Shown: piece by piece, positions 42,830-63,872 of the stretch
Position numbering within the stretch: position 1 is the stretch's first letter
Layout of the letters: each line of letters opens with the position of its first letter
Origin: a virus
Reading direction: 5' to 3' (one strand)
DNA length: 64,000 bases
Virus record (IMG/VR): IMGVR_UViG_3300025151_000001
Span: 28,241-92,240 of that record
Translations under genes and position numbers: made by a program
The notes under the pieces: model-generated
Told to the model about the DNA's origin: nothing
Database searches by the model: none
Seen by the model: the letters and a program-made list of their open reading frames with translations, nothing else

Positions 42830-43046
42830 CTGATAATTTCTTCACAACATCGTGAATTTCTGACCAATCCATACCAGAAACATCACCAACCCCTGAGGAT
42901 TTTTGAATGTTCATCGAAGGGGTAGGGCTATCAACAACAACATAACCTGACTTCATCAGAAGATTGTCGTTATTATAAACGGCTTTCTCTAGTTGTTCAA
43001 TCTTAGTCGTGAGTGCTTTTAAAATCTCTAATAAATCTTCGTTCAT
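42822..43046 (-). CDS. small protein sharing the scaffold C-terminal motif
   Basis: MDWSEIH versus scaffold MDWSDIH. Confidence 0.6.
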   Translation of the reverse strand: MNEDLLEILKALTTKIEQLEKAVYNNDNLLMKSGYVVVDSPTPSMNIQKSSGVGDVSGMDWSEIHDVVKKLSGE

Positions 43047-43408
43047 AATTTTTCCTCCTTCTTTTTAGCGGGATAAACTAAATCTTCCAATTGGCGATAG
43101 AGTAACTCATACTCCTTCCGTAATTTGCTAGCCGTGGCGACAATATCAACGTTGCGCTCGTCCATAGACTTCATCTTCTTTGTGAGTTTTTTATCTGATT
43201 TGACGAGTTCCATTGTTTTTAAAAGGGTAATCAAATCGCCTAGTTTTGTGAAGTCTTGACCAAAAAATTCAGAAGGCTCTGCCGTTTGAAGAGTCTTCTT
43301 AAGTTTCTTTCTTTCCTTAGAATTAAGAGTATCTAAAAGTTTTTCAGGAGATTTTCTCTCTTCTTTTAGAATGAATTCTTTTCCGGTGTCATAGTAATCC
43401 CAAGTCAT
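43043..43408 (-). CDS. hypothetical protein (putative head protein)
   Basis: MTWDYY...FILKE, LVKS. Confidence 0.55.
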   Translation of the reverse strand: MTWDYYDTGKEFILKEERKSPEKLLDTLNSKERKKLKKTLQTAEPSEFFGQDFTKLGDLITLLKTMELVKSDKKLTKKMKSMDERNVDIVATASKLRKEYELLYRQLEDLVYPAKKKEEKL

Positions 43409-43410
43409 AA

Positions 43411-45306
43411 TCATGCCTCCGGTCTTTTTGCGACTTCTTTTCTAATGAAGTCTAGAGTCTTTTCTAAAATTTTAATTTGTGTTTGAAGTTCTTCAGAAAT
43501 TTTCAATAAGAGTCTAGTATCTTCCACATCAAAGTCAGGGTCTTCAATTTTATCTTTAAGAAGTTCTTCTAGAAGTTCTTCCATCTTGTCCTCTTCTTTG
43601 AATTTTTCATCGGTTAGACTATCAACCACTTCAGAAACTTCTTCCTTTACCCTACTTAGTTGGGACTTTAAAGAATCTAAGAACTCAACAGTATATCCTT
43701 CGACAATTTCAGAAATTTCTTCAGTCATCCCTACTTTGAATTTTCTTCCTAATCCAGACAAGTCGTCAGATAATTTATCAATCAAATTAAAAATATCAGT
43801 CATTTTCATTTTTCGGTCTTCAACAATTTTATCTAATGTTGATTCATACTCTTCAACAACTTTAGCATATTGAGGGTCAGAAATTAAAAGATATCTAAGT
43901 TCATCATTTTGAGTAATGCTCTCGATTTCTCTATTCTTTTCTTTTAATTCTGATGAAGTAAAGGTATCTGGTCTAATATTTTCTCTTTGAAGATTTCTTT
44001 GGATTCTTTTTTTGTCTTCCTCAGAAAGTTCGGAACCTTCTTTACCCGCATATTTAATTTTAATTAGAATTTCAGATAATGCCTTACGCATTTCTTCTTT
44101 AACTTTCTCATATTCTTTACGCAATCTTTTGTCTGTGATTGGGTAAGAACCCGGATTAGATTCAGCAAGTGTCTTAATCTTAACAATAGAAGTTTGAAAC
44201 CTAGTGATGTTTCTAGAAATCCTTTTACTCCTCTCTCTTTCTTGGGCTAACCTTTGTTTTCCTCTTCCAGAAATTCCTTGAATATCAATCGGGATTTTAG
44301 TTTTTACACCGTAAGCCCTACTAGCAAATCTCGTTAATCTGAGAATAGCCTTTTCACTATCCTTTATTACAAATAAAATCTTTTTTATATTTTGAAAGTA
44401 TTCTTTATATCCTCTACTTTCTGGGGTAATTTCGTTTGGTCTTTTAACGAACCTTAGACCACCACTAGGGTCTAATGTGTAGTCAAAAATATCAGAGTTT
44501 TTATTTAATTGAGAATCATCGTTTTCCATTAGAATTTTAATTAACTCTAACTTCAGTAATGGTTGCCCCTCTAAGATTTTAATGAAAAGGTCTTGTTCTT
44601 CATCAGTTGATTGGTCATCAGAATCTAAGTTTTCAATTGACTTGGAAAGTTCCTCTGAAAGATTTAAAAGTTTTTCTGGAACTTCTTTAGCAATTTCTTC
44701 TGCTTCAAGTCTTTTAACTCCTCTTCGAGATGGTTGTTCAGAATAAAATGCAGCGAATTGCTCTCGAATATCTTTTAGAAGAGTGCTAGTGGTAATTCCC
44801 TTTGGAGAATCCGAGATTCCTTTTAAAATATTGACAAGTCTCGTTTCAGTCTCCTTAACTCTACCATACTTAGTTCTTAAAAAGTCCTTAAAGTCAGATG
44901 ATTTTTTAACCTCGTTTGACTCAAGAAGCCCTTCCAGATTTGGTTTTTTAACTTGTTCAGTAAGAGTATCAATCAATTTTCGCCTTTTCTCTTCTTCTCT
45001 TTTTTCCTTAGCAGTTTTCTTTTTCTTTTTGCCCTCTGGTTTAAGTGACCTAATTTGTTCAGCATCTGCTTCAGTATAAGTTCTTCTTTTTACGGGTGTT
45101 AGCCTATCATTCGGAAGGGGTCGTTTTTTATAAGAAGCATATACTTGTTCGCTAAATGCTCTTTGCTTTAAGAAACTATTTAATTCAGAAGCACTAGTAA
45201 ATTTTGTAATTTTTGAATAAAGTCTATCTCCAACTACAGTCTTAATTACATTTCCATGCGAGAGCATATCTGGCTCAACGTCTTCTTTAAGAAGGTTTTG
45301 CCACAT
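43411..45306 (-). CDS. large charged helical protein with W-x-x-L-L-K leader
   Basis: MWQNLLKE; K/E-rich, 631 aa. Confidence 0.65.
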   Translation of the reverse strand: MWQNLLKEDVEPDMLSHGNVIKTVVGDRLYSKITKFTSASELNSFLKQRAFSEQVYASYKKRPLPNDRLTPVKRRTYTEADAEQIRSLKPEGKKKKKTAKEKREEEKRRKLIDTLTEQVKKPNLEGLLESNEVKKSSDFKDFLRTKYGRVKETETRLVNILKGISDSPKGITTSTLLKDIREQFAAFYSEQPSRRGVKRLEAEEIAKEVPEKLLNLSEELSKSIENLDSDDQSTDEEQDLFIKILEGQPLLKLELIKILMENDDSQLNKNSDIFDYTLDPSGGLRFVKRPNEITPESRGYKEYFQNIKKILFVIKDSEKAILRLTRFASRAYGVKTKIPIDIQGISGRGKQRLAQERERSKRISRNITRFQTSIVKIKTLAESNPGSYPITDKRLRKEYEKVKEEMRKALSEILIKIKYAGKEGSELSEEDKKRIQRNLQRENIRPDTFTSSELKEKNREIESITQNDELRYLLISDPQYAKVVEEYESTLDKIVEDRKMKMTDIFNLIDKLSDDLSGLGRKFKVGMTEEISEIVEGYTVEFLDSLKSQLSRVKEEVSEVVDSLTDEKFKEEDKMEELLEELLKDKIEDPDFDVEDTRLLLKISEELQTQIKILEKTLDFIRKEVAKRPEA

Positions 45307-45317
45307 TTAAAATCACC

Positions 45318-45542
45318 TCAGAAGGGAATGTTTTCTTTTCGTCCACGACGACGTGGAGGAAGACTAACTACATCAGGAATATCCCTTGAAGTAGGAATAG
45401 ACTTGTGTGTTGTGTCAGTAGGTAAGCCAACAGAAAAATCCCGATTAGGAGTAATTTTTCTATCTGCGTTTGCATTCTGCGCTTTTACTTTTGCCAACTC
45501 CTTTCGGAGAGCAATTTCTTTTTGTCTTAAATCTTCGGTCAT
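45318..45542 (-). CDS. small basic protein
   Basis: GGTGA SD; coiled N-terminus, Arg-rich end. Confidence 0.55.
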   Translation of the reverse strand: MTEDLRQKEIALRKELAKVKAQNANADRKITPNRDFSVGLPTDTTHKSIPTSRDIPDVVSLPPRRRGRKENIPF

Positions 45543-45556
45543 TTAATCACCTTATT

Positions 45557-45850
45557 CTAAAGTCTATCAATCACTTCTTTAGAAAATTCTTCATAATCGT
45601 CTTCCGTGTAATCTGTAAGCAAAAGGATGTTAGGTTCCCCATTTTTAGTTGTTAGATTATATTTTTTAGCAATATCTAAAAGAATTTCATATTCTTTTTG
45701 ATAGTTATACGGCTTTTCAAAGAAATAAAAGATGCTTTCTCTTCCTGCACCTCCAATAATCTGATAATTTTCTAAAGTCTTTCCTAGAGCAATAAGAATA
45801 TCAGGAGTTCCCGGTAATCTTTCTGCCTTTCTTAATTCATTCTTCCACAT
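45557..45850 (-). CDS. small protein with WKNELRK leader
   Basis: MWKNELRKAE. Confidence 0.6.
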   Translation of the reverse strand: MWKNELRKAERLPGTPDILIALGKTLENYQIIGGAGRESIFYFFEKPYNYQKEYEILLDIAKKYNLTTKNGEPNILLLTDYTEDDYEEFSKEVIDRL

Positions 45851-47496
45851 CAAGGAATCCTCCTTTCACTTCTTCTATCAACGTTTTGATTACCCGCATC
45901 TTCAGGTAATCCGGTGAATCTCTTATCCGGTCCCACGCTTTGCCGTGCTTTATTTCTTGTGGCCGGTGGGTTCTCTTGGGGCGTAGGACTTCCACCCTGT
46001 AACGCTTGGCGTTGCATTTCATCGAGGTCACGTTGGTCAACGTTTGAACCTGCTAATGGGTCAACCTTAGCACCTTCTTCACCTTCAGGTTGTTCTTCAG
46101 GTTTTGGTTCAGGCGGAGGTTTCTTGAAAGTAAATTGTCCGTCTTCATCCATATCAACCTCAAAGCCAATATTTTTCATAGAAGCAGCAAGGCTAATTTC
46201 TAATTCACGCTTCCTAAGAACAGCAATTTCATCTTCTTCTTCGGATGGTGGAAGTTTAAGTTTCCAATCTGTGATACCGAATTGTTTAGTTAAGTATGGG
46301 AAAACGTAATTGTTATACACATTCTGAGCCATTTGGACCGCACGATTCGTAACAAGGATTTGCATACCTTCATTGTTAAGACCACCGCTTGTTGTGTTAT
46401 CAGCCATAAAGACTTTGCTTACACCATAGAAAGCAGAAATTCTGTCGCGTAAGTCATCCTTTACTGCGACATAATCCATCTCTTTTAGGCTGTCCATAAA
46501 CTTAATCCATTCAATAGCACCTTTGCCGTTCTCGGCTTCAATACCCATTACAGGAATAAAATGGGGGTCAGCCTCCATCTTCTCTTTAACGGAACGCCAG
46601 AAAGAACGCATGGATTCCATGTTTCTAGTTTGAACTGCAAGAAGACCACGGGGCATTCTACTCTTAGTGTAAGATTGATTTACATAATTCTCCATTGCAA
46701 TTAGAGTCATGATTAAATTATAAAGAGTAAGAATAGGAGAAGTCCCATATAAACGAGAAGGGCTATATTTACTAAAGTGAAGAATTTCTCCTTCAATGAA
46801 ATATTGGTCTTCTCCATGAGCGCGATTCACGAAATGAACAGGAAGAAGATTACCACCACAACTTTCACAAGTTTCATGCGGTTCAGAGACTAATACTGAA
46901 CGATGATTAATACAAGTAAAGCCTTTGGTTCCTCTAACTCCATCCTCATCCGAGTAAATATTCATAGTTACAGGGTCGCCCCGATACATTTCTTTGATAC
47001 GATGCATTCTAATTTTACCGTTCCCATCAATAAAATATTCTTTAACAAGAACAATGTATGCATCATCCATAATGTTGAGGTCGTCTTCTAATTCTTTAAG
47101 AACATCAATGAATAATTGTTCTGACTTATTAACATATCCTTCAATAAAGTTTTCAGCGTAAATTAGTTGTTTAGGATTAGGTTTTTTTAATTCTGTTGAA
47201 CCACACCTAGCACACTCATCAACCGGCTTATCGTGTTCTTTTCCACAACTTTCGCATCTTGCTTCAAATGCCTTTTCCCAATGATAGCCTCGTCTAAACG
47301 TTTCCTGTTTTAATTGCGTAGTGCAAGTTCTAGCGATAACAGATTGCTGATGCAGAGAATAAATGATTGGAGAAGTTACCATGTGCTGATAACTTCTTTC
47401 TTGGATGCCCATATTGAAAACTTGCCTATCGGCAGGTTTCGGAGTTTGCCTCCTAAAGAGGTTAGTGATGGAGAAGCGTCTTGGTCCTTCAGCCAT
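45850..47496 (-). CDS. portal protein with Zn-ribbon insertions
   Basis: DDAYIV, EILHF...LYGTSPI, MPRGLL, ISAFYGV; CESC/CARC and CINH/CESC. Confidence 0.85.
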   Translation of the reverse strand: MAEGPRRFSITNLFRRQTPKPADRQVFNMGIQERSYQHMVTSPIIYSLHQQSVIARTCTTQLKQETFRRGYHWEKAFEARCESCGKEHDKPVDECARCGSTELKKPNPKQLIYAENFIEGYVNKSEQLFIDVLKELEDDLNIMDDAYIVLVKEYFIDGNGKIRMHRIKEMYRGDPVTMNIYSDEDGVRGTKGFTCINHRSVLVSEPHETCESCGGNLLPVHFVNRAHGEDQYFIEGEILHFSKYSPSRLYGTSPILTLYNLIMTLIAMENYVNQSYTKSRMPRGLLAVQTRNMESMRSFWRSVKEKMEADPHFIPVMGIEAENGKGAIEWIKFMDSLKEMDYVAVKDDLRDRISAFYGVSKVFMADNTTSGGLNNEGMQILVTNRAVQMAQNVYNNYVFPYLTKQFGITDWKLKLPPSEEEDEIAVLRKRELEISLAASMKNIGFEVDMDEDGQFTFKKPPPEPKPEEQPEGEEGAKVDPLAGSNVDQRDLDEMQRQALQGGSPTPQENPPATRNKARQSVGPDKRFTGLPEDAGNQNVDRRSERRIP

Positions 47497-47668
47497 GCTT
47501 AACGCCTCCGTCCGTCGCTTGTTCGTCATCATTCAAGAGGGTGTCGGCATCCATTGGCTGAGGCATACCTGCTTTTACCCAACAATCATAACAAAAGCCA
47601 AAAGGAGCCTCTGTTGAACCAAAATATTCAGGGTCATAACAACAACTATAATATTTCCAATCAGGCAT
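47489..47668 (-). CDS. small Cys-rich protein
   Basis: YSCC...FCYDCW; coupled to both neighbours. Confidence 0.5.
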   Translation of the reverse strand: MPDWKYYSCCYDPEYFGSTEAPFGFCYDCWVKAGMPQPMDADTLLNDDEQATDGGVKHG

Positions 47669-49253
47669 AAGCAGCCCTCTTTTGTAGTTTATTTTCAACT
47701 GTATTTTCTTCTGACTTTTTAAATCCTTTTAACTGATTTTTATACTTTTTTAGAAGTTTAGAAATGATTGAGGTAGCACTTTCAAAATTAAGCCTATCGT
47801 TAATTTTAGATTGGAATTCCTTAACTGCTTCATCTGGTAAATTTCTCAGTTTAGGATAACTTCTTTCAAGGCCTGCTCTATCAAATTTAATGATGGTTCC
47901 AATTCCTTCTAATTCATCCATTGCAGACATTTTGCAGTTATCTCTATACTTTTGAATATCGTCTTTATAGATGCCTTCTTTTTCAAAATCAAAACCAACG
48001 TGGTCTTTGTGGTTTTCCCATTTCATAAGTTTGAAAATTTCACCACATCGTTGCTTATACCAATCTTGTTTCTTAAATGATTTTTTCATTCGGACTAATT
48101 CTAGAAGTAATTCTGCATTTCCTTTCTTTAATCGGAAGTGAGGAAGACATTTGGTGAGAAGATTATGCACATCATCCTGTGAATAAAAGTTTAGGCGATT
48201 AACAGGACGGGTATCTTGTGGTGACTTTTGGTCAAGATGAAGACGACCGAAACCAATGCTTTTATGCATTTCTTCCATGAAAGCCTTCCCTCTTTCGCCC
48301 GTTGCAACTAAACCGACCCTAGGGTTAAAACTCCTATCCATTGTAATGTAACCATCTGAATCAATAAATGCAGCAGTATAAGCCCAAATATTTTTCTTAA
48401 TCTCTGAAGAGAATTTATAATAAGAACCACTTGTGTTAACGATATCTAATTTTTTAACTAGTTGAGAAATAGATGCAGGACTTGAAGATTTATATAAAAT
48501 AGTAGGCATTCTATCATGAATCTGCTTTGCTCCAATACCGGGTTCATCACAAACTGATTTCAAGATAAAATCTTCAATCCTCTCTTTCTTCGACTTAGTA
48601 ATAGATTGATTTGAAATTTTAGCAAGGGAGTTTCGAAATTGCTTTTTAGCAGAATTCATTTCTTTTTGGAGAATAGCAAATTCTTTTCCTAAATTTACTT
48701 CTCTTTGATTTAGGTCAGCCTCCCAATATTTACACAAAGAATCGACAACTTCTCTTCGAATATCTTTATTTTTCATCTTATGGAGTTTATGTAAATCTTT
48801 TTCATTAAATCTCATTTTAAGAAGAGTAGATTTGTATGGCCTAACCCAATGAATAAAATTAATTGACTTATCAATATGGTCAGAATAAGCATCAATAAGA
48901 GTATCAATAGATTTAGACATACGTTCTCTATCATCGCCCTTTAACTTTCGCCTAGCCTTACGCAATTTTCTAATCAAGTCTGGAACAGTTTCTTCTTTAA
49001 CAATATACTCCTTTGGAAAAGAATCTAAGTGCTTTCTTGCTTGGGAAGCATTAATTTTTAAATCATTGGATAGTTTGGTAATTTCTTCTAGTTCTGAAAA
49101 AACTGCTCCCGTATCAAGTGATGCTCTAATTTCAGTAAAGTCTACACCTAAGGCTCTTTCTGCCTCATCTTTAACTTGTTCTTCTTCTTCATCTAATTCT
49201 GCTAGACGCTCCATTCGGCTCGCCGCTTCTCTATATTCTTCAGGAGTAGGCAC
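47661..49253 (-). CDS. multidomain protein: helical N-terminus, wHTH, LAGLIDADG endonuclease domain
   Basis: AYTAAFIDSDGYIT, LPHFRLKK..A; EPGIGAKQIH HTH. Confidence 0.75.
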   Translation of the reverse strand: MPTPEEYREAASRMERLAELDEEEEQVKDEAERALGVDFTEIRASLDTGAVFSELEEITKLSNDLKINASQARKHLDSFPKEYIVKEETVPDLIRKLRKARRKLKGDDRERMSKSIDTLIDAYSDHIDKSINFIHWVRPYKSTLLKMRFNEKDLHKLHKMKNKDIRREVVDSLCKYWEADLNQREVNLGKEFAILQKEMNSAKKQFRNSLAKISNQSITKSKKERIEDFILKSVCDEPGIGAKQIHDRMPTILYKSSSPASISQLVKKLDIVNTSGSYYKFSSEIKKNIWAYTAAFIDSDGYITMDRSFNPRVGLVATGERGKAFMEEMHKSIGFGRLHLDQKSPQDTRPVNRLNFYSQDDVHNLLTKCLPHFRLKKGNAELLLELVRMKKSFKKQDWYKQRCGEIFKLMKWENHKDHVGFDFEKEGIYKDDIQKYRDNCKMSAMDELEGIGTIIKFDRAGLERSYPKLRNLPDEAVKEFQSKINDRLNFESATSIISKLLKKYKNQLKGFKKSEENTVENKLQKRAAYA

Positions 49254-49262
49254 ATAATCACC

Positions 49263-50693
49263 TCAAAAGTTCAGGCCCATGAAGCCGCGCTGCGGTCGGG
49301 AAGTGGTTGGGTTCCCACCGAACAGGTCCAAGTCGTCAAGCAGAATAAACGCTTCTGAAGCCTGATAGGTGGCTGCATTTGCTAAGGCGAGACTCATAAC
49401 CATGTCGTCATGTGCGCCGATTCCCTCAAACTTTCCATTGTCTGTAATTGCGAACATAGACATTTCTTCTACTAATGTTGAAGTAACTCTCCTACTTTCT
49501 TCATTGCCATAAGGGAACTGAATTTTCTTATTCTCAAGAGACATTTGAAGATTGAGAATAATCTCCTGCTTCTTCCGACGAGTCGTGTTGAAATCATGAA
49601 CGTTAATGTCCGCGACTTGGCGTAACTCTTGTGTGAAAGACTTTGCGAATGTATTTGTTTCAAACAAAACAACTTCAGGACGGAACATTGAGTTAATCAG
49701 TTTAACTTTCTGAATGTTGTCTCGGAATTGAACGTTCTTTGCTCGGTCAATATAGACCAAACGTTTGTTCTCATCCTCATCCATTTCGAGAACCGTGATT
49801 ACGTTATAGTCACCATCAGTTGAAATAGCAGGGTCCACACCAACGAAATATTTGTGACCTTCTCTTCGCATTGGCTTTAGAACGAGGTCTTTATTCTTAG
49901 CAGCATCTAAGTATTCTGGATTGAACAAACTCATACCTGTTGAAATAGGAACACACATATATTCTCTTGTGAACTTAAGAGTTCCAATTTCAGCCTTACG
50001 AGACATAAGAGCATCGTAGTTCCAACGCTCGGGCCATAGGGGTTCATTTAATGAATCTAAACAGGGATAAGTTCTAACCGTGTAGGCTTCGTTTTCTGCT
50101 AACTGTTGGTAAATATCTGTATAACTGAAAGGTGTTCCAATAACGCGAAGTGATGCGGTGTGGTGAAGTGTAGGAATCATGTCTCCATAAAACCAATCAG
50201 TAACCTTTTGAATAGCGGTCATGCTAAATTCTTTCAAAGGGTCGTCAATTACAATCTCTTGTGGGTGAAGACCACGAATCTGAGAACCGACAGAACGCTC
50301 AAGGATTTGGTTTCCATTCGTAAGAGTAATGTTTCCAATCGCCCAACCGCGTGCAGGTTTATATTTCTTGAGATATGGATGGGCGAATAATTTATCAATG
50401 TCTCTCATGTGAACCATTGTCTGTTTTTGGTTAGATGAAATATAAAGCATTTGATAAGGTGGCTCTTGGAAAACTAAATTCCAAACGACCCAACTGTGCA
50501 TAAATACAGACTTACCGTGGTCACGGGAACAGATGATAACAGTTCTTTGAGTGCTATTCATCAGTTCGTGCCATTCTTGAATATAAGATGGAAAGTCAAA
50601 ACCTAAAACTTGCTGAAAGAAATATGGAAAAGAAGTGGCGGACAACTTCATGTCCATTGCTTCTTGCAAGTCTAAAGGTGCGGACTCCATCAT
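49263..50693 (-). CDS. terL: terminase large subunit
   Basis: CSRDHGKS, IVIDDP, GTP, FTREY, VGVDPA, AHDDMVMSLALA. Confidence 0.93.
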   Translation of the reverse strand: MMESAPLDLQEAMDMKLSATSFPYFFQQVLGFDFPSYIQEWHELMNSTQRTVIICSRDHGKSVFMHSWVVWNLVFQEPPYQMLYISSNQKQTMVHMRDIDKLFAHPYLKKYKPARGWAIGNITLTNGNQILERSVGSQIRGLHPQEIVIDDPLKEFSMTAIQKVTDWFYGDMIPTLHHTASLRVIGTPFSYTDIYQQLAENEAYTVRTYPCLDSLNEPLWPERWNYDALMSRKAEIGTLKFTREYMCVPISTGMSLFNPEYLDAAKNKDLVLKPMRREGHKYFVGVDPAISTDGDYNVITVLEMDEDENKRLVYIDRAKNVQFRDNIQKVKLINSMFRPEVVLFETNTFAKSFTQELRQVADINVHDFNTTRRKKQEIILNLQMSLENKKIQFPYGNEESRRVTSTLVEEMSMFAITDNGKFEGIGAHDDMVMSLALANAATYQASEAFILLDDLDLFGGNPTTSRPQRGFMGLNF

Positions 50694-51205
50694 TTCCTCC
50701 CCCTTAAAACATAAAACCACTTTGAAATTGGTAAGCCTTTGACTCCCCATGTAGCGCCTTTAGGGTGATTACTGTAATAATTTCTAAAACCTTCAACGGT
50801 TGAATTATTTCCATAACTTCCCAACTGTTCATCAGTAGGGGCCATCGTCCATCCTTTACCTTCATTAATTCGAATCCAATCCTTATTAGACATAGTGCTA
50901 CTACTAAATCCAGCAAAATAAGGTTTTGGTAATGTATTATCTGCTTTTTCTGTTAATTTTTTATAAAATCCTTTTCCTTGATATTTTGGAGAAACGAAAG
51001 TTCCACCTCTTAAAGTAATGCCTTCTTTTTTAGAATACCCAGCAGCACCAACAATGTTGTCATCATCAAATAAAACTAAATAGTTGGTGATAGGATAAAA
51101 AGAATCAAGAGGAGAATTTTTCGAACGATTGCTCGGTAGGGTTCCTCCTTCTGTTTTTTTCCAAAGAGAAACTAATTCCTCTTTAGGCATATCTTTGAAT
51201 TCCAT
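50690..51205 (-). CDS. GNAT-family acetyltransferase-like protein
   Basis: FVSPKYQGKGFY acetyl-CoA loop; C-terminal KWFYVLR. Confidence 0.6.
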   Translation of the reverse strand: MEFKDMPKEELVSLWKKTEGGTLPSNRSKNSPLDSFYPITNYLVLFDDDNIVGAAGYSKKEGITLRGGTFVSPKYQGKGFYKKLTEKADNTLPKPYFAGFSSSTMSNKDWIRINEGKGWTMAPTDEQLGSYGNNSTVEGFRNYYSNHPKGATWGVKGLPISKWFYVLRGRK

Positions 51206-51209
51206 ATTA

Positions 51210-51449: not shown

Positions 51450-51454
51450 ATTAA

Positions 51455-51742: not shown

Positions 51743-51743
51743 T

Positions 51744-52190
51744 TCAATTTCTCCTATTTTTTGGACGGATATACTCATCTAAGAATGAAGCAGGATTTTC
51801 ATCTGAAAATAAATCTGAAACAGAACGTGCATCATCTTGTTTCCCTTCATTTTTGCATTTTTCGAAGTCTTCTAATATTTTTTTAGCAGACGGAACATAC
51901 CAACTTGGTAATTTACTTTCGCCTCTTGGTGGGTTTTTTGCACTTTCGATTCTTTCTTTAAGTAATTGAATAATATAATCGCATGTTTCTTCTACATCAT
52001 ATTCTAAAATATTTTCCGCATTTTGTCTCATATATTCCGCATTTGGTTTTAGATAAGGAAATTCATCCGACATACTTTCATAGTAATCTGCTAATTTATG
52101 GTCAAGCATAGCAAAATCAGATACTAAATTGGTGCAACAAAGTTTTTTTGCATCCACTTTAACATTTTTAAGAATAGTCTTCCAATTCAT
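51744..52190 (-). CDS. WxxILK-leader protein
   Basis: MNWKTILK; CC...C...C. Confidence 0.65.
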   Translation of the reverse strand: MNWKTILKNVKVDAKKLCCTNLVSDFAMLDHKLADYYESMSDEFPYLKPNAEYMRQNAENILEYDVEETCDYIIQLLKERIESAKNPPRGESKLPSWYVPSAKKILEDFEKCKNEGKQDDARSVSDLFSDENPASFLDEYIRPKNRRN

Positions 52191-52191
52191 T

Positions 52192-52581: not shown

Positions 52582-52586
52582 TATAA

Positions 52587-52973: not shown

Positions 52974-52978
52974 TATAA

Positions 52979-53158
52979 TCACCTCTTAGGATTTCTAAGC
53001 ATAGCAAAATCTTTTCCGGTAATCTTTCCGTCCTTGTCGGCATCAATTTTCTTTTGATTACCAGAGAGTTTCTCCATCTCTTGCTTTTCACAATCAGCGC
53101 AACCGCAGCCCATTTTTTCTGTGCCGCAATGGGCTTTTAGAATATCTTTCCAAGTCAC
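52979..53158 (-). CDS. WxxILK-leader protein with EF-hand-like loop
   Basis: GTG start VTWKDILK; DADKDGKITGKDF. Confidence 0.6.
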   Translation of the reverse strand: MTWKDILKAHCGTEKMGCGCADCEKQEMEKLSGNQKKIDADKDGKITGKDFAMLRNPKR

Positions 53159-53159
53159 T

Positions 53160-53531
53160 TCATCCTCTCCTTCTTTTATACGTTTTACACGCAGCGCAAG
53201 TAGGTCTGCATCTTTGCTTAGTTCCCTTAGAAGCATCTTTACGACCACAGGGTTCTGTTCCCTCTTCGTCGTCTTCACAAGATTGGCACGAAATCCAACC
53301 CTTTACCGGACCGCTTCCACCTCTTCTTCCAAACCATTCATGCAAATCATCATTTGCTTTCTTAAGTTTAGATTTTTTACCTTGTCTACATTGAACCATG
53401 TAGCCAGATTTATAGGCTGAACTTTTCATTCCGTATTTTTTATCGGCTAACTTAGCGCAACGGTCTTTAGGCTCACCTTTGCTATTATGCGTTGCGGTGG
53501 CCTTCGCCTTGAGAACTTCTTTCCAATTCAC
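53160..53531 (-). CDS. WxxVLK-leader basic Cys-rich protein
   Basis: GTG start VNWKEVLK; SAYKSG..VQCR, LHEWF, PCGR, CRP. Confidence 0.65.
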   Translation of the reverse strand: MNWKEVLKAKATATHNSKGEPKDRCAKLADKKYGMKSSAYKSGYMVQCRQGKKSKLKKANDDLHEWFGRRGGSGPVKGWISCQSCEDDEEGTEPCGRKDASKGTKQRCRPTCAACKTYKRRRG

Positions 53532-57873: not shown

Positions 57874-57882
57874 GCAATCACC

Positions 57883-58539: not shown

Positions 58540-58540
58540 A

Positions 58541-59545
58541 TCAAACCCTCAACACTTCATCCCATTTCAACACTACTTCTTCTTGAGTAGTCGGATTTAC
58601 GAACTTCTCAGGAACCCTTGTGTTTCTAGCGGCAGCACGTCGTAATAGTTCTCGCGCGTTCTTTGGAGTAAGTTCAAAGAAAACCTCATCAACTTCTCCC
58701 GTCAAACTAAAGATTCTCTTTACGTCTTCTGAAGTTTTTGGATTTAGTTTGAGAGGTGTTGTCGCAAGGTATTGTGCTAACTTCTTTGAACTCAATTCCT
58801 CCTCAGTATAAAGTGAAGCGGTCTTTAACGCCCTGTTAATGTATTGTCCTAGTTGGTCAAGTTTAACAAGTTTGTTAATCAAAGTAAGGTTGTTAATCAC
58901 TAAGTCAACTTCATTCTCTTCAATATCTTCAATGGCTTTCTCCAAAACAAAGTAAAGGCCGGTAAGTTTCAGACTCCCGCTACCATCACCAAAAAGTGCC
59001 TGATGATAAGGCGGCTGCTGATTGCCGTTTGCCCTTCGGGAATAGAAGCCTTCCTTCGCAGCCTTTCCGGTCTTCGCCTCAAAATACGGAGTCCGGTAGT
59101 GACCATAAACTTTTACTTTCTTACCCTTTGGGACGACCTTACCTCGGACACGTCTAAAAGATTGGGGTTCTCGGAACAGAGTGTTCTTTGGGTTCAATGT
59201 CGAAGAAGGAGCCTTAAATTCATCTAGTGCGTCAAGTAACGCTTCTAGCATTTCTAACTCTTCGTCATCTTGGTAGCCTTTTTCTAGAATCTTACCAACT
59301 TCTTCTAATACTTTAAAAGCACCGTCTTCTCCAGAATTGCTAGAGTTTGCACGGCGAACCTGAGAATTAACGTGCTGAGAAATTTGCACATAAAGGTTGC
59401 CCTTGTCTTCCTTTGTTCCAAGAACTTCACCCGAGAACGATTCGCACTTTTTCTTCCATTTCTTGAAAGACTTACCAAAGCCGCGATTTACGACTTCGAC
59501 AAATACACCGGGAACGATTTCAATCCTCTCTTTCTTCCTTACCAC
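58541..59545 (-). CDS. hypothetical protein with C-terminal WDEVLR
   Basis: 334 aa; ends VVLKWDEVLRV. Confidence 0.6.
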   Translation of the reverse strand: MVRKKERIEIVPGVFVEVVNRGFGKSFKKWKKKCESFSGEVLGTKEDKGNLYVQISQHVNSQVRRANSSNSGEDGAFKVLEEVGKILEKGYQDDEELEMLEALLDALDEFKAPSSTLNPKNTLFREPQSFRRVRGKVVPKGKKVKVYGHYRTPYFEAKTGKAAKEGFYSRRANGNQQPPYHQALFGDGSGSLKLTGLYFVLEKAIEDIEENEVDLVINNLTLINKLVKLDQLGQYINRALKTASLYTEEELSSKKLAQYLATTPLKLNPKTSEDVKRIFSLTGEVDEVFFELTPKNARELLRRAAARNTRVPEKFVNPTTQEEVVLKWDEVLRV

Positions 59546-60200
59546 GCTTCTTCCTCCGTGAATATCTAATGTTGTGAATACCGGGTGTGGCCGAAGTCAC
59601 CGCCCCTGCCGCCTTCTGTGTGTCCTCGTTATTAGACTCATCGTCCAAGACAGACCAAGAGAAACGAATTATTTCCATTGGGTTATTCCTATAAACAATT
59701 TTCGCGTTATAGTCTCCGGTCCCACGAACCACACCAATTTGTGATTTTGTCCCGTCCGCATTTGACCTACCATAATCTTTATGACTTGATTTTAAATAAA
59801 ATCCACTCATAAACGACCAATCTCGCCAAACGAAATCGTTTTGTAAAGCATATTTTATAATCATCCTTAACTGACCTTCATCCTTTAAATCTTCTAATAA
59901 TTCACAGTAAAGGTCATCTTCCAAAAAATCTCTTTTTTGAAGCCATAACCAACCATTTATCATATCTCCTCCTTTTGGCCCCGGAACATCAAAACCAATG
60001 GTGAGTCTATTTGGGTCATCAAAAATTGTTGTCGTATGCTTCCACATTTTTGATAAATCAATAAGATATTCTTTGAGTTTTTCGAAACAATCCTTGTCTT
60101 CTTTGACTCGCTTAAATGGTTTCTGAATATCAATTGGAGCCATACCCGTTTGGGTTTTACCCTGAAGTTTTTGGTCCTTAAGGATATCAAACCAAGTCAA
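59520..60200 (-). CDS. PIDIQKPFKRVK family paralog 4
   Basis: TTG start LTWFDILK...GMAPIDIQKPFKRVKEDKDCFEKL. Confidence 0.7.
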   Translation of the reverse strand: MTWFDILKDQKLQGKTQTGMAPIDIQKPFKRVKEDKDCFEKLKEYLIDLSKMWKHTTTIFDDPNRLTIGFDVPGPKGGDMINGWLWLQKRDFLEDDLYCELLEDLKDEGQLRMIIKYALQNDFVWRDWSFMSGFYLKSSHKDYGRSNADGTKSQIGVVRGTGDYNAKIVYRNNPMEIIRFSWSVLDDESNNEDTQKAAGAVTSATPGIHNIRYSRRKKRGKEERED

Positions 60201-60775
60201 AGGAACCCACTCCAATTATCAAATTCCTTGTGAAGTTTGTAGGTATTTTCATAAAATCTTTCTTCATCTTCAAAATAATGGGCAACTAAAATAAGTGCCG
60301 TATCTTCTGTATCATAAGAAGCACCTTTAGGTTGAATCTCTATTTGATAGATAGTTCCCTTTTTAAAACAAGTAATTAAATAATTACCAACTTCCTCGAC
60401 AATATCTCCAGAAGGGGGCCTTAAATTCTTAAACATTTCAATTGCTTTGCAGTAAATTTCATCGGGAACATCCCCCTTTGGTGGAATTTTAACTGCGGTA
60501 TGAATGAAAAAATTATCTTCAGTATTTGGTTCGGTATAATAAAAATTCATTACGTTTGCTCCATGCCACCTGCTACCAGAATTATCAATAACTTCAGGTT
60601 TTGTTTCTCTACTTTTGGGGAAAGACGCTTGCACCTTTTTAGCAATTTCTACGAATTTTTCATAACAACCTTTATCCTTCACCCTTTTGAAAGGCTTTTG
60701 AATATCAATTGGGGCCATGCCTTGCCTTTGACTTTGCACAGTCTTGGCTTCTTTGAGGATTTCGAACCAATTCAT
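60197..60775 (-). CDS. PIDIQKPFKRVK family paralog 3
   Basis: MNWFEILK...GMAPIDIQKPFKRVKDKGCYEK. Confidence 0.7.
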   Translation of the reverse strand: MNWFEILKEAKTVQSQRQGMAPIDIQKPFKRVKDKGCYEKFVEIAKKVQASFPKSRETKPEVIDNSGSRWHGANVMNFYYTEPNTEDNFFIHTAVKIPPKGDVPDEIYCKAIEMFKNLRPPSGDIVEEVGNYLITCFKKGTIYQIEIQPKGASYDTEDTALILVAHYFEDEERFYENTYKLHKEFDNWSGFL

Positions 60776-61224
60776 TTCATTTCATCCTCCCTGAATTCGG
60801 ACCCGATTACAGCAACATTATCTCTTCCTGCATCTTTTTCTCCAACGTATGCATAAAAATGATTATATCTATAATCAGAGGAAAATCTATAACTTAAGTC
60901 TGAATCTTCAAACCTATGGTCTACATTTTTATCATGATTTGCTATTTTTTCTTCAATCCATTTTTTAGCCTTGCAATAATACTCATCGGGATGAGATTCA
61001 ACGATTATTGCAAAATCTTCATGAGAAGAGGCTTCCCAAATTAGCATCTTCTTACTTTCGAATTTAGGAGACTCTAAGCGTGAATCAAAAAATGCTTTGA
61101 GTTTCTCAAAACAACTATCATCTTCTTTTACCCTTTTAAAAGGTTTTTGAATATCAATAGGAGCCATCCCTGCACGGGAAGACTGAACAGAAGTCTGCTC
61201 CTTCAGGATATCAAACCAATTCAT
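60772..61224 (-). CDS. PIDIQKPFKRVK family paralog 2
   Basis: MNWFDILK...GMAPIDIQKPFKRVKEDDSCFEKL. Confidence 0.7.
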   Translation of the reverse strand: MNWFDILKEQTSVQSSRAGMAPIDIQKPFKRVKEDDSCFEKLKAFFDSRLESPKFESKKMLIWEASSHEDFAIIVESHPDEYYCKAKKWIEEKIANHDKNVDHRFEDSDLSYRFSSDYRYNHFYAYVGEKDAGRDNVAVIGSEFREDEMK

Positions 61225-61739
61225 TTCAATCCCTCTGGTTCATAAACATTATATTCAAGAAGTAGATTTTTTCTTTTACCGTATGTAATAATATAGTTAA
61301 CTCGGTCTAATTCTTCTATTGCTTGGGAGATAATTTCTAAATCTCGATGAGAAGGCATACTAGATAAAGGTGCGGACATTAAGTTCCCCTTAGTCCAATC
61401 AATTTTTAATGAATGTGAAATAGAAACCTTAAGTGCTTCTAAAACTAAACAATACATTTCATCAGGTATCTCGGGATTAAATCCTATAAACAAATATTCT
61501 AATGGATTTTCATTAGGTTCAACGAAATAATTTTTATGGTATTGGGCTAAAAAGCCTCCATTTTTGCGAGGGTCTCTCGTCTCAAATTCGAACCTACTTT
61601 CAACAAAAGCAATTAGTTTGTTAAAGCAATCATCTTCTTCCTTTACCCTCTTAAAAGGCTTTTGAATATCAATTGGTTTCATACCCTGTCTTTGACTCTG
61701 AACTAACTCAGAGTTTTTAAGGATATCAAACCAAGTCAT
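61221..61739 (-). CDS. PIDIQKPFKRVK family paralog 1
   Basis: MTWFDILK...GMKPIDIQKPFKRVKEEDDCFNKL. Confidence 0.7.
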   Translation of the reverse strand: MTWFDILKNSELVQSQRQGMKPIDIQKPFKRVKEEDDCFNKLIAFVESRFEFETRDPRKNGGFLAQYHKNYFVEPNENPLEYLFIGFNPEIPDEMYCLVLEALKVSISHSLKIDWTKGNLMSAPLSSMPSHRDLEIISQAIEELDRVNYIITYGKRKNLLLEYNVYEPEGLK

Positions 61740-62349
61740 TTCTATCCCTTTTCAAAAGTCGAAACCATTCAGACTTGTTCATCTCTTGAAAATCAGAACT
61801 AAATTCAGGTTCACCAACATCAACAGTTTCAGCATCGTCGTAAGTTCTCTCGGAAAGATTCCTAGACTCATTGTGGACAATTAAAGCATTTACAGTCATA
61901 AACATCCCTAAGAAATTCATGACCTCACTAGTGAAAGACTCAACTAATGCATCGTCAATGTCTTGAATCTCAGTTCCAACAACTTTTCTCAAAGATGCAA
62001 CAAAAGTGTTATCGTCAAGAATATCATTAAGCATAGTAAAGATAGCCTTTTCGACTTTTTCTTCATCAACAATCCCGTCGAATAGGGGCATATCAATAAT
62101 ATCTTCAGGGTCCATATCTGGGTCAATCTCTGGCTTTTCGCCCGGACTCAGAACATCCTCGGGGTCCAAAGTTAAAGAATTTCCAAGCACTTCGCTCATA
62201 ACTAAAGCAAATGCTTCGGAACCAAGAGTATAATTTCTCTCGGCTTGTCTTGCCAAATTGAGCATACCTTGACCATAGTTCTCTTTAACCCAAGCGGTAA
62301 GAGCATCCATTTCATCTGGAATATTTTCTCGGATATCGAAAGGTTTCAT
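61726..62349 (-). CDS. acidic protein with C-terminal WFRLLK
   Basis: D/E-rich; ends MNKSEWFRLLKRD. Confidence 0.6.
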   Translation of the reverse strand: MKPFDIRENIPDEMDALTAWVKENYGQGMLNLARQAERNYTLGSEAFALVMSEVLGNSLTLDPEDVLSPGEKPEIDPDMDPEDIIDMPLFDGIVDEEKVEKAIFTMLNDILDDNTFVASLRKVVGTEIQDIDDALVESFTSEVMNFLGMFMTVNALIVHNESRNLSERTYDDAETVDVGEPEFSSDFQEMNKSEWFRLLKRDRNDLV

Positions 62350-62633
62350 TGGTTATCCCTCACAAAATTGGAAACCTTGTCTAAAACTCTATTTAGATTG
62401 AACGCTTTGAAAGACTGAGTAATTCCCTGAACTCTTACCTTAATATACATCATTCCTTTATTTCTGCCGGATGGTTCTGAAGTAAGGTCAATTTGCCCCC
62501 AATCTGCTTTTAGTTTATACCTTGGACCAGATTTACCGAAACCTCCGGTAATCTCTCCACCAAAATCGTTTTCAATATTCTCCAAGAAATCTCTCGGAGT
62601 AAGCATCTTAAGGACGTCAAACCATTCAGTCAT
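62346..62633 (-). CDS. WxxVLK-leader protein
   Basis: MTEWFDVLK. Confidence 0.65.
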   Translation of the reverse strand: MTEWFDVLKMLTPRDFLENIENDFGGEITGGFGKSGPRYKLKADWGQIDLTSEPSGRNKGMMYIKVRVQGITQSFKAFNLNRVLDKVSNFVRDNQ

Positions 62634-62642
62634 CTAATCACC

Positions 62643-62996
62643 TCAAGCAGCAGTTCCAGAATTGGATTGATTATCTTTGCTTCGAACCTTCATTGCTCTA
62701 ACGAAGTTTGAAATTTCGGCAAGAGACTTTGTTGCAGCATCAGGCATACCCGCAACTTCAGCAGTTCCTCTCAATAATTGCAAAGCACTTCTTTGCTGAA
62801 GTCCGTCCTTTGCATTTTTAACGGCTTCAATACGGCGCTCTAATTCTGCAATATTGCTCCGTGTCTTTCTTCTGTCAACCCCCGCTTGCCGCAATTTAGG
62901 GTCATTTGGAATGGGCATTTCTTCAGGCATAAATTCCCTGACTTCCGCCATCTCTCTTTCATTTAGCGGTGCTTTCAAAATATCTTTCCAAGTCAT
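62643..62996 (-). CDS. WxxILK-leader protein
   Basis: MTWKDILK. Confidence 0.65.
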   Translation of the reverse strand: MTWKDILKAPLNEREMAEVREFMPEEMPIPNDPKLRQAGVDRRKTRSNIAELERRIEAVKNAKDGLQQRSALQLLRGTAEVAGMPDAATKSLAEISNFVRAMKVRSKDNQSNSGTAA

Positions 62997-62997
62997 A

Positions 62998-63264
62998 TTA
63001 ATCATCTACTCCAAATAGTTCTTTTAATTCATCGCGCAATTGTTCATATCTTTCGGAATCAATTTTACCTTTCATGAACATATTGCCAATTTTTTCAATA
63101 CCTTGTTGGTAGGTATCTGCCCCCGTTCGTAATTCAGGCGACCTTTCCCTTCGTTTTCGTTTTTCGTAGGTAGGCTCCATGCCGTATTCCCTAAAAGATT
63201 CGGGGTCAATGTTTCTTTCGTTATCAGAAACCCTTTTTCTTTTTATTACGTCTTCCCAAGAAAT
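62998..63264 (-). CDS. WxxVIK-leader protein with probable ATT start
   Basis: GGTGATTTGA-ATT TCT TGG GAA GAC GTA ATA AAA, in frame with ORF 62998-63180. Confidence 0.5.
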   Translation of the reverse strand: MSWEDVIKRKRVSDNERNIDPESFREYGMEPTYEKRKRRERSPELRTGADTYQQGIEKIGNMFMKGKIDSERYEQLRDELKELFGVDD

Positions 63265-63549
63265 TCAAATCACCTTTTCTAAAGCATCAATATACTTCTG
63301 CAATCCCTTTTTATATTCTTTGCCCGTAATTGTTCCTGTTTCACCGGGGTCAGGATATGTTGAATCATCCTTCATTTGAGAGTAATATTTCTTTGCTTGT
63401 CGGAGTTCATCCTTAGCAATTTCTTTATAGTTGCTCTCATTGATTTTATCGCCAAATAATCTTTCCATTTCTTGTGGGTCATACATACCCAAAAGTGCTC
63501 TTTTGAGTTGTTGCAAACCGTCTTGTTTTAAGATATTTCGCCAAGTCAT
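63265..63549 (-). CDS. WxxILK-leader protein
   Basis: GAGGTG SD, MTWRNILK. Confidence 0.65.
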   Translation of the reverse strand: MTWRNILKQDGLQQLKRALLGMYDPQEMERLFGDKINESNYKEIAKDELRQAKKYYSQMKDDSTYPDPGETGTITGKEYKKGLQKYIDALEKVI

Positions 63550-63872
63550 ATTGTTCACCTCACGATTAATTTTTTGGAACAAGACGCAATAATTCCTCAA
63601 TTTCATCTAATGCGTTATCTAAATGTATTTCAAGTTCACTAATTGCTCCGCGTTGTTCATCTGTAAATTCTACATATGAATCTGCAGTAATTTTATCATT
63701 AAGACTATCAATGGCCATCTTAATTTTACTAGTGAGTTTTCTGAGGTCGAAATTATGCACCTCTTTATAGTAGTCGAATTCCTCTATATCAGAATAATCA
63801 AAATTCATCTTTTTAGTAAAATTTTCTTTTAAAATATCTTCCCAAGTCATATTGTTCACCTCCCAAGTCATA
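63541..63872. repeat. 21-nt direct repeat of SD plus leader
   Basis: ccaagtcatattgttcacctc at 63541-63561 and 63842-63862, with an extra ccaagtcata at 63863-63872. Confidence 0.8.
63566..63850 (-). CDS. WxxILK-leader protein
   Basis: GAGGTG SD, MTWEDILK. Confidence 0.65.
   Translation of the reverse strand: MTWEDILKENFTKKMNFDYSDIEEFDYYKEVHNFDLRKLTSKIKMAIDSLNDKITADSYVEFTDEQRGAISELEIHLDNALDEIEELLRLVPKN

Follow-up and report, generated by a model that had tools for sequence, protein, structure and literature searches.

Why should about twenty otherwise unrelated proteins of one virus carry the same short terminal peptide? The question is raised by a complete 92-kb magrovirus-like genome, from an archaeal virus of the ocean, of which the window analysed here is a stretch of 64,000 nucleotides.

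Tagged genes in the window

We searched the window by six-frame scan and in the ORF list for the pattern W-x-x-[ILVM]-[ILVM]-[KR] two codons past a start codon. Fifteen minus-strand ORFs match, with W codons at 63844, 63543, 62990, 62624, 61733, 61218, 60769, 60194, 53525, 53152, 52967, 52575, 52184, 51736 and 45303. An additional copy, ISWEDVIK (W at 63258), has ATT at the start position and lies in frame past the TGA of the preceding gene. With this copy, M-x-W-x-x-[IV]-L-K opens 16 genes on the minus strand from 43 to 64 kb, beside one weak match and three C-terminal copies. The original prediction had listed 17 such leaders; the scan and the ORF list bear out 16 of them, and the other, MWKNELRK at 45850, is a weak match whose place in the tag set is doubtful. 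The three C-terminal copies that it listed are real. The set amounts to about twenty small soluble proteins next to the head-assembly genes (all on the minus strand).

63566..63850 (-): tagged gene, MTWEDILK, 94 aa (ORF list, scan, codons)
63265..63549 (-): tagged gene, MTWRNILK, 94 aa (ORF list, scan, codons)
62998..63264 (-): tagged ORF, ISWEDVIK, ATT at the start position, Shine-Dalgarno at the usual distance (scan, codons)
62643..62996 (-): tagged gene, MTWKDILK, 117 aa (ORF list, scan, codons)
62346..62633 (-): tagged gene, MTEWFDVLK, 95 aa, one additional residue ahead of W
61726..62349 (-): 207-aa protein, C-terminal tag WFRLLK plus seven residues (ORF list, scan)
59520..61739 (-): four tandem tagged paralogues, MTWFDILK, MNWFDILK, MNWFEILK and LTWFDILK, with ~40 N-terminal residues in common
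58541..59545 (-): 334-aa protein, C-terminal tag WDEVLR plus V
53160..53531 (-): tagged gene, VNWKEVLK, GTG start, 123 aa, basic, Cys-rich
52979..53158 (-): tagged gene, VTWKDILK, GTG start, 59 aa, EF-hand/dockerin-like loop
52587..52973 (-): tagged gene, MSWKNILK, 128 aa
52192..52581 (-): tagged gene, MSWEVILK, 129 aa, Cys-rich
51744..52190 (-): tagged gene, MNWKTILK, 148 aa
51455..51742 (-): tagged gene, MDWKDILK, 95 aa, very basic, in family 0 of the BLAST clustering
50690..51205 (-): GNAT acetyltransferase, C-terminal tag WFYVLR plus GRK, immediately upstream of TerL
45557..45850 (-): weak variant MWKNELRK, directly past the portal gene
43411..45306 (-): 631-aa coiled, charged protein, MWQNLLK, M and W adjacent
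43043..43414 (-): conserved core 123-aa protein, split tag variant MTWD[YF]Y, six-residue spacer, FILK

The known domains among tagged proteins are GNAT, PAP2-like, zincin-like HExxH and EF-hand-like, together with very basic small proteins. The bodies behind the tags had been described as unrelated apart from four paralogues; BLAST clustering agrees for the paralogues (59.5-61.7 kb) and adds two K-rich proteins that also cluster. The tag of the MSWEVILK gene is kept in 27 of 27 orthologues, and its homologue in a tag-less clade (L213) begins MAWLVIKE.

The tag is conserved as a peptide

In its strict form, the DNA pattern for W-x-x-I-L-K is present 14 times, whereas shuffled sequences have 1.31 +/- 1.14 copies and none of 100 reached 14; 12 of the 14 copies stand at gene starts. 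The Leu position takes all six codons and the Ile position both ATT and ATC. Because all six Leu codons occur, the tag is conserved as a peptide, and the DNA-level conservation that the original prediction had named as evidence against itself was not seen. The Lys codon is AAA in 12 of 16 copies, the leader is A-rich, and a strong GGAGGTG Shine-Dalgarno precedes the start. As stated originally for the replication and tail genes, a whole-genome scan found no W-x-x-I-L-K in the remaining 71 kb, where the replication, tail and cassette genes lie.

Hot spots and distribution among related viruses

Tagged genes are confined to hot spots that lie among TerL, portal and adjoining head genes, where they share one strand and are closely coupled. 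This is in line with the proposed confinement of the motif to the head-module neighbourhood. The untagged core genes framing the hot spots, and the protease and capsid genes, are as follows.

45850..50750 (-): TerL (49263-50750), a conserved 530-aa protein and portal (45850-47532), untagged
38576..39781 (-): prohead protease (Peptidase_S78) fused to a coiled scaffold region
37221..38564 (-): HK97-fold major capsid protein (MCP)

The tagged genes form a hypervariable accessory pool at these few sites.

Among 80 related contigs we counted 615 N-terminal tags, on soluble proteins that BLAST sorts into about 192 unrelated families. Tagged genes are essentially missing from three sister magrovirus clades; the tag marks a single magrovirus clade. 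A logo of 631 copies, weighted over the 192 families, gives W 1.00, I 0.83, L/I 0.92 and K 0.98, with no conservation past K. Tagged families have a median length of 109 aa, and 191 of 192 lack a membrane segment; with no hydrophobic stretch past the tag, a Sec/Tat or class III signal peptide is rejected.

The basic residue depends on where the tag stands: Lys and Arg number 604 and 11 in N-terminal copies (98% Lys), 53 and 5 in internal copies, and 16 and 18 in C-terminal copies (Fisher p = 1e-10 following dereplication). The 34 C-terminal copies in related loci end one to three residues past the basic residue. Directly after Lys (P1'), Pro is found in 0 of 631 copies, where 6.6 families would be expected to have it, and Asp is underrepresented. 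D/E is enriched at P2', as it is in the core sites described below, and Pro at P2'-P4'. Helix capping could be an alternative cause of the Pro exclusion and the acidic P2'. All 44 strict internal copies lie at domain junctions of long plus-strand ORFs, with none on the opposite strand, and the domains downstream of them match stand-alone tagged families.

The representatives of families 0 and 2, from related loci L054 and L005, are homologous to marine bacteriophage proteins; over the aligned body, identity reaches up to 63-79%. The phage homologues are untagged and begin precisely at the tag end. The tag has been added modularly to proteins that are untagged elsewhere.

The tag resembles a scaffold tail joined to a candidate protease site

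Two head proteins end in one and the same peptide.

38597..38620 (-): protease-scaffold C-terminal peptide, M-D-W-S-D-I-H-R (clade consensus MDWSDIHKM)
42849..42872 (-): C-terminal peptide M-D-W-S-E-I-H-D of a 74-aa head protein (42822-43046)

Within the clade this common end is kept as M-D-W-S-[DE]-I-H-K-M, and two sister clades keep the tail as M-[SD]-W-x-[DE]-[IV]-H (78 of 80 loci in one of them). In both proteins and in all three clades it lies within 30 residues of the C-terminus. Compared by sequence, the N-terminal half of the tag, M-[STN]-W-x-[DEN]-[IV], matches this tail. The protease-scaffold tail and the tag consensus are alike at 6 of 8 positions (MDWSDIHK vs MDWKDILK, including M, W, D, I and K), and a rough estimate reasoned from residue frequencies puts a chance match in a 20-residue tail at about 4e-5. 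By analogy with the scaffolds and proteases of HK97, P22, 80alpha and herpesviruses, the tail may dock the protease-scaffold and the small head protein to the inner shell of the procapsid.

The other half of the tag, [IV]-[LI]-K, matches at the residue level the core [IL]-L-K sites of the MCP and protease, which are kept in four clades at the MCP N-terminus, ahead of the protease domain and where protease and scaffold meet.

39719-39727 (-): FTILK|S, protease-scaffold
39260-39268 (-): FDILK|Q, protease-scaffold
39236-39238 (-): nested scaffold start (AGGTGA Shine-Dalgarno and ATG), past the protease/scaffold junction site
38478-38486 (-): candidate maturation site S-L-L-K|Q of the MCP (residues 27-29), conserved

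The MCP monomer model has the HK97 fold, and the candidate maturation site lies in its low-confidence, flexible N-terminal region. W-R-I-L-K at MCP residues 93-97 was rejected as a cleavage site; it is a structural strand. The [IL]-L-K sites are likely the cutting sites of a Lys-specific prohead protease; in HK97, gp4 cuts gp5 at K103/S104 (PMC10275583).

A proposed capsid-loading label and its alternatives

Our preferred reading, to which we give an even chance, is that the tag labels proteins for loading into the capsid and is clipped off by the prohead protease. It would serve as a portable address at protein termini, peculiar to one magrovirus clade, and would join a scaffold docking peptide (its N-terminal half) to a protease Lys site (its C-terminal half). 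Made alongside the head genes, tagged proteins would be carried into the assembling procapsid as the tag binds inside it; where a body follows the tag, a cut past Lys would leave that body as free soluble cargo. The data show the motif, its selection as a peptide, its confinement to one clade and to the head region, its modular addition, the two sequence matches and the residue statistics; binding, packaging, cleavage and delivery of the tagged proteins are inferred. Of the elements originally proposed, the terminal address peptide tied to the head module gains independent circumstantial support from the match to the scaffold/protease tail, the loading itself being putative, as are injection and a role against host defence. 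The Lys cleavage site is likewise favoured circumstantially: the [IL]-L-K matches, the use of Lys or Arg by position, the P1' statistics and the internal tags at junctions all fit putative cleavage. Against the loading label, a virion with 15-20 different cargo species would be out of the ordinary for a genome of 92 kb. The scaffold tail and ILK sites are also there in sister clades, which have no tagged genes, so these features alone are insufficient for the system.

Because an E1-like (ThiF) gene and many others are specific to the tag clade, a different clade-specific partner has to be allowed for. That the tag docks its bearers to such a partner and not to the capsid shell is unlikely in our judgement; candidates are an 819-aa protein, the virus's own ubiquitin-like ThiF/E1 system, for which the tag Lys would be the acceptor, and a chaperone or degradation machine of the host. 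Both complete tag-clade genomes encode ThiF/E1 and three complete sister-clade genomes lack it, the conserved 819-aa protein is clade-specific and encoded between tag islands, and Lys is 98% invariant in N-terminal copies. Clade-specific genes are so many, however, that the co-occurrence counts as a single event, and another partner leaves both the scaffold/protease-tail match and the MCP/protease ILK match unexplained. Half of the C-terminal copies carry Arg, which is unable to act as a conjugation acceptor; with Arg in 18 of 34 such copies Lys is not invariant, which speaks against a ubiquitin-like conjugation target or degron. The similarity of the ILK half to candidate protease sites, the exclusion of Pro at P1' and the resemblance of junction copies to polyprotein sites would also suit a propeptide alone, whose removal by the prohead protease, or by a different one, would time or activate cytoplasmic proteins that are never packaged. 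We regard this as quite improbable. Prohead proteases such as those of HK97 and T4 are normally active only within procapsids, a simple cleavage site needs neither an invariant Trp nor a match to the scaffold tail, and cutting the 34 C-terminal copies, which end one to three residues past the basic residue, gains nothing.

There is only a slight chance that the shared N-terminus serves expression or stability, as an initiation-friendly leader or N-terminal stability signal with no role in sorting. Its position at the start codon behind the strong GGAGGTG, and its A-rich leader, in which 12 of 16 Lys codons are AAA, would fit, but the codons vary freely, the same peptide is found at C-termini and internal junctions, and neither this genome's replication, tail and cassette genes nor the sister clades, whose Shine-Dalgarno usage is the same, carry it. 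We disfavour, as very improbable indeed, the view that the motif marks a cassette boundary or recombination site in the DNA, or that it is left over from a common ancestor of all tagged genes. Their standing as a hypervariable accessory pool at few hot spots would agree with this, yet all six Leu and both common Ile codons are used, the flanking DNA is unconserved, and the bodies represent about 192 families with no relation to one another, two of them with untagged bacteriophage homologues.

Beyond the loading label itself, it is conceivable, and we offer it tentatively, that an archaeal tailed-virus lineage invented an open-ended capsid-loading code, docking peptide plus Lys site, with cargo released in the head and carried into the host along with the DNA. 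If so, any gene gaining eight tag codons would become virion cargo, bacteriophage-derived genes included, and the injected proteome of an uncultured virus group could be read straight from sequence. We found no published report of this tag in the literature.

Comparison with known systems

In T4, the internal proteins IPI-III and Alt, otherwise unrelated, carry a short N-terminal capsid-targeting sequence (CTS) of about 10-20 aa; it directs them into the prohead, where the prohead protease removes it at a consensus site and the cargo remains (Mullaney and Black 1996, as described in PMC7411985 and PMC9024508). The magrovirus tag is likewise a short N-terminal peptide common to otherwise unrelated proteins of one virus, found 16 times in the window and 615 times across 80 related loci and spread over about 192 families defined by BLAST. 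The T4 protease belongs to another family and cuts after L/I-x-E, whereas the protease here is S78 (HK97-type) with candidate [IL]-L-K sites; the T4 CTS binds the scaffolding core, whereas the tag resembles the scaffold's own tail; and the CTS is on only four proteins, whereas the tag heads 15-20 genes per genome. The tag also stands at C-termini and domain junctions, the virus is archaeal, and packaging and cleavage are putative. The equivalence originally proposed is apt as an analogy of mechanism; membership in the T4 system fails because protease family and cleavage motif differ. Homology to that system (gp21-type protease, L/I-x-E, MKTYQEFIAE-like CTS) is rejected, given a Peptidase_S78 and a tag without CTS similarity.

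SPN3US and phiKZ-like giant phages cut the propeptides of head and ejection proteins at A-x-E (PMC7411985, PMC10052503). There one prohead protease processes many head-internal proteins at a common motif, as would be the case here, but the propeptides are long and share no 8-residue tag, and protease family and motif differ. For P1 DarB an N-terminal signal suffices to send the protein into the capsid for host delivery (PMC9024508); that signal is about 30 residues long, on a single protein, and needs helper Dar proteins.

The tag is also like encapsulin cargo-loading peptides, and the magrovirus MCP model fold-matches encapsulin shells too. Those are short terminal peptides on diverse cargo that bind inside an HK97-fold shell, but encapsulins lack portal, terminase, DNA and maturation protease. 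They have no sequence relation to the tag, and an encapsulin cargo-loading system is rejected, since portal, TerL and tail genes are present in the genome.

Duda et al. are said to have described in 2013 a C-terminal shell-binding peptide of the HK97 gp4 protease. Protease and scaffold genes are nested in lambda (C/Nu3) and herpesviruses (UL26/UL26.5). The P22 and 80alpha scaffolds have C-terminal shell-binding peptides (PMC12749128). The magrovirus head module resembles these systems in the one C-terminal peptide common to protease and nested or separate scaffold, and in the layout of protease, nested scaffold start and MCP. There, however, the peptide is only on assembly proteins, whereas here a near copy, mostly N-terminal and with His replaced by Leu/Ile, is carried by a large, fast-changing accessory set.

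Genome organization of the virus

The window covers bases 28241–92240 of a contig 92,240 nt long, the end of which repeats its first 100 nt, indicating that the genome is complete. Gene content and marine IMG/VR relatives place the virus as a magrovirus of Poseidoniales archaea; it has no close relative in the GenBank phage collection, where the best TerL match is 26% identical. The plus strand carries an archaeal-type replication set (an RFC-like AAA+ protein, a split family-B polymerase, a Cas4-like nuclease and an ERCC4 nuclease), and the minus strand carries a single long block of head and tail genes, TerL and portal among them. The polymerase is divided between two ORFs about 600 nt apart, 6012–7679 with the exonuclease and the beginning of the polymerase domain and 8280–9167 with the remainder. 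The minus-strand features are as follows.

49263–50750, minus strand, TerL
47661–49253, minus strand, 530-aa protein between TerL and portal, conserved in 80/80 close relatives and in two sister clades
45850–47532, minus strand, portal
39819–42317, minus strand, 832-aa protein with an ATP-dependent DNA ligase domain (residues 252–436)
38576–39781, minus strand, S78 prohead protease fused to a coiled region (protease-scaffold)
37221–38564, minus strand, SU10-like major capsid protein (MCP)

The ligase-domain gene is part of the head module, where it separates the genes of the small head proteins from that of the protease; its position is taken by an ORF of ~1860 aa in the two loci examined from other magrovirus clades (L162, L174). 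AlphaFold modelling of the MCP gave a pLDDT of 37 with 20 close sequences and a pTM of 0.60 with a 35-sequence alignment over four clades. The latter model matches phage capsids and encapsulin shells, and the predicted fold of the MCP is that of HK97.

A short peptide tag on accessory proteins near the head genes

Sixteen minus-strand ORFs between 43 and 64 kb encode W-x-x-[IVL]-[LI]-K no more than three codons from their start; the start position holds ATG, GTG or TTG in 15 and ATT in one (ISWEDVIK, 63258). The original prediction counted 17 such leaders; the remaining one, MWKNELRK, is a weak match to the tag. Three proteins of the window have the tag at the C-terminus. The strict coding pattern occurs 14 times versus 1.3 expected, and a whole-genome scan found no copies in the genome's other 71 kb. 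The tag Leu is spelled by all six codons and the Ile by both common codons, while a GGAGGTG-type ribosome-binding site is all that the upstream DNA of the tagged genes has in common. Selection thus acts on the peptide rather than on the DNA. Genes from 63850 down to TerL overlap or are separated by gaps of ≤16 nt, so that these genes are probably co-transcribed with the head genes.

The ISWEDVIK ORF (62998–63549 region) has no ATG, GTG or TTG start; behind the usual ribosome-binding site, an in-frame ATT at the start position directly adjoins the TGA that closes the tagged gene before it. Certain relatives have an equivalent domain behind ~53 upstream residues in one open frame (family 9, ...AIKIN-WRKILK), and the tag sits at the junction with no start codon right in front. 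Initiation at ATT, read-through of the stop and a recent split of the gene are all possible. A conserved core head-module protein of 123 aa (43043–43414) carries what resembles a split tag, M-T-W-D-[YF]-Y and F-I-L-K-E separated by a 6-residue spacer, retained in most of 118 homologues.

Distribution of the tag among related viruses

With TerL as query we found 80 related IMG/VR loci (79–96% identity), which like this genome belong to the tag clade. These loci contain 4.3 N-terminal copies per 10 kb, 615 in total, of which 614 lie on the TerL strand. One third of all distinct near-TerL genes of the clade have Trp at residue 3, a 37-fold excess. After trimming of the tag, the proteins fall into about 192 BLAST families (median 109 aa), bearing out the prediction that, four paralogs apart, the bodies behind it are unrelated; 191/192 families lack a membrane segment. 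The core head genes are conserved and untagged, and the tagged genes form a hypervariable accessory pool. They are inserted at a few hot spots: upstream of TerL, in the space that separates the 530-aa gene from portal, and right after portal. Where orthologues were found they keep the tag (27/27 in the Cys-rich family). In a second complete tag-clade genome the count is 15 N-terminal copies plus one at a C-terminus, none of them farther than 15 kb upstream of TerL.

Three sister clades of magroviruses were reached with portal queries, their portals being only 37–45% identical. There the tag occurs at background level (0.04–0.09 per 10 kb, three complete 108–110 kb genomes included), and a de novo search found no other shared N-terminal motif. 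The magrovirus literature searched does not mention a shared terminal motif, and a literature search on capsid targeting in archaeal viruses found nothing.

Tagged protein bodies and untagged homologues

For two large tagged families, the matching PHROG profiles start precisely at the end of the tag. Homologues of these families in cultured marine bacteriophages, up to 63–79% identical in the aligned body, have no tag and start straight with the body (among them Methylophilales phage MEP402 gp49 and Celeribacter phage P12053L gp37), identifying the tag, as judged from these alignments, as an add-on to protein bodies. The Cys-rich-family homologue in L213, a locus of a tag-less clade, starts MAWLVIKE, so the Leu-Lys end of the tag is lost there. 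Small basic magrovirus proteins (L005:5177–5383 and L054:7858–8193) are 63–79% identical to counterparts in pelagiphages, roseophages, Puniceispirillum phage HMO-2011 and cyanophages (GenBank OP830907 gp49 and JQ809650 gp37), which suggests that archaeal and bacterial viruses sharing the same water have recently exchanged genes.

Recognisable tagged domains include GNAT, a PAP2-like phosphatase, zincin-like HExxH and EF-hand-like loops, and many tagged proteins are small and very basic. Pfam and PHROGs gave no function for most; the exceptions are GNAT and PAP2-like matches and weak zincin/HExxH, CotH-like and EF-hand matches. The same searches gave none for the 819-, 626- and 631-aa neighbours, and the sole match of the 530-aa neighbour was weak and HNH-endonuclease-like (residues 291–408).

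Residue statistics and internal copies

The basic residue of the tag is Lys in 604/615 N-terminal, 53/58 internal and 16/34 C-terminal copies, the last followed by one to three residues. The contrast in Lys/Arg use between N- and C-terminal copies holds after dereplication (p = 1e-10), suggesting that Lys is needed only where the downstream part would need release. Pro never follows the Lys directly (0/631; 6.6 families expected; p = 0.0014) and Asp rarely does. From the second to the fourth residue after Lys, Pro is over-represented, and 36% of families have an acidic residue at the second, as the candidate sites of the core proteins do. These statistics are compatible with cleavage after the Lys.

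Long ORFs contain 44 strict internal tags on the head-gene strand and none on the other. They lie at domain junctions, sometimes two per protein; downstream of several are domains found elsewhere as stand-alone tagged proteins (families 2, 4 and 9), and the upstream part matches proteins that elsewhere have a C-terminal tag. Four loci (L011, L012, L013 and L034, ~6.1–9.0 kb) encode three-domain proteins with two internal tags (WFNLLK, WKDILK), the first domain of which is elsewhere a stand-alone, C-terminally tagged protein just upstream of TerL.

Candidate protease sites and a matching scaffold tail

An [IL]-L-K sequence is conserved in all four clades at three places in the MCP and protease (slashes mark the candidate cut).

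Near the MCP N-terminus: S-L-L-K/Q here, E-L-L-K/A-D elsewhere
Just before the protease domain: F-T-I-L-K/S
At the protease/scaffold junction: [FY]-x-I-L-K/[EQM]-[DE]

The MCP site lies within the flexible, low-confidence first 77 residues of the model. The capsid protein of HK97, whose protease is the founding S78 member, is cleaved at K103/S104, within an unstructured segment (PMC10275583). We rejected W-R-I-L-K (MCP residues 93–97) as a maturation site: it reads W-R-V-I-T in the sister clades and forms a beta strand in the model.

At its C-terminus the protease-scaffold reads K-M-D-W-S-D-I-H-R-L-T-G-G-N-L, and the 74-aa product of a gene upstream of it (42822–43046) closes with G-M-D-W-S-E-I-H-D-V-V; the clade consensus of both tails is M-D-W-S-D-I-H-K-M. 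Two sister clades keep M-[SD]-W-x-[DE]-[IV]-H on both proteins (78/80 loci in one), and the third has a different peptide in its place. Six of the eight positions match the tag consensus M-[STN]-W-x-[DN]-I-[LI]-K, and Lys at the last position of the tail motif is found only in the tag clade. Replacing the His by Leu or Ile creates an ILK site, and the apparent origin of the tag is thus a scaffold tail combined with a protease site.

An internal AGGTGA ribosome-binding site with an ATG (39236–39238) at protease residue 182, just after the FDILK site, marks the start of a nested scaffold gene sharing the C-terminus of the protease. All four clades conserve a Met here (K-M-T, N-M-S). The layout is that of lambda C/Nu3 and herpesvirus UL26/UL26.5, where protease and scaffold have a shell-docking tail in common. 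Contacts between scaffold ends and the N-arm of the capsid protein are described in PMC12749128.

Proposed mechanism and alternatives

We propose that the tagged proteins are produced along with the head genes, that the scaffold-like half of the tag would dock them inside the procapsid, and that the prohead protease would then cut after the tag Lys to leave soluble cargo in the head. We put the chances of this sequence of docking and cleavage at about even; the steps of binding, packaging and cleavage are inferred, as is any host delivery. The rapid turnover of the gene pool is the only support for the possible anti-defence role.

The tag could instead bind a different, clade-specific partner. 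A ThiF/E1-like gene present in both complete tag-clade genomes and absent from the three complete sister-clade genomes would be a candidate, but dozens of other genes have the same distribution, and Arg in the C-terminal copies argues against the tag Lys as a conjugation acceptor. (The ThiF/E1-like gene, G000:C1:20595–21158 in genome coordinates, lies 7.1–7.6 kb before the window, and the match crosses one TAA.) A propeptide serving cleavage only is less likely than docking followed by cleavage, since it accounts neither for the half of the tag with the Trp nor for the match to the scaffold. An expression or stability leader is at odds with the C-terminal and internal copies, and the codon variation speaks against a cassette boundary at the DNA level.

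Virion-internal and injected proteins are usually discovered only by proteomics of cultured phages, and no cultures exist of magroviruses or of their Poseidoniales hosts, which rank among the surface ocean's most abundant virus-host pairs. If the proposal is true, a loading code readable from sequence would name the cargo, so far about 190 families, nearly all of unknown function. Archaeal viruses would gain their first capsid-targeting system, which would also be the first linked to an HK97-type (S78) protease. In addition, proteins could be loaded into HK97-fold shells by means of a very short tag, and the scaffold tail and protease site as the tag's apparent origin offer a concrete, testable evolutionary path.

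The original prediction read the tag as a T4-like targeting signal for virion-delivered cargo. The scaffold-tail match, the ILK sites and the residue statistics lend partial, circumstantial support to targeting and to a Lys cleavage site, and the proposed working principle is that of the T4 capsid targeting sequence (PMC7411985) and the P1 DarB signal (PMC9024508), but the tag is not a member of either family, since its protease family, cleavage motif and apparent docking partner are all different.
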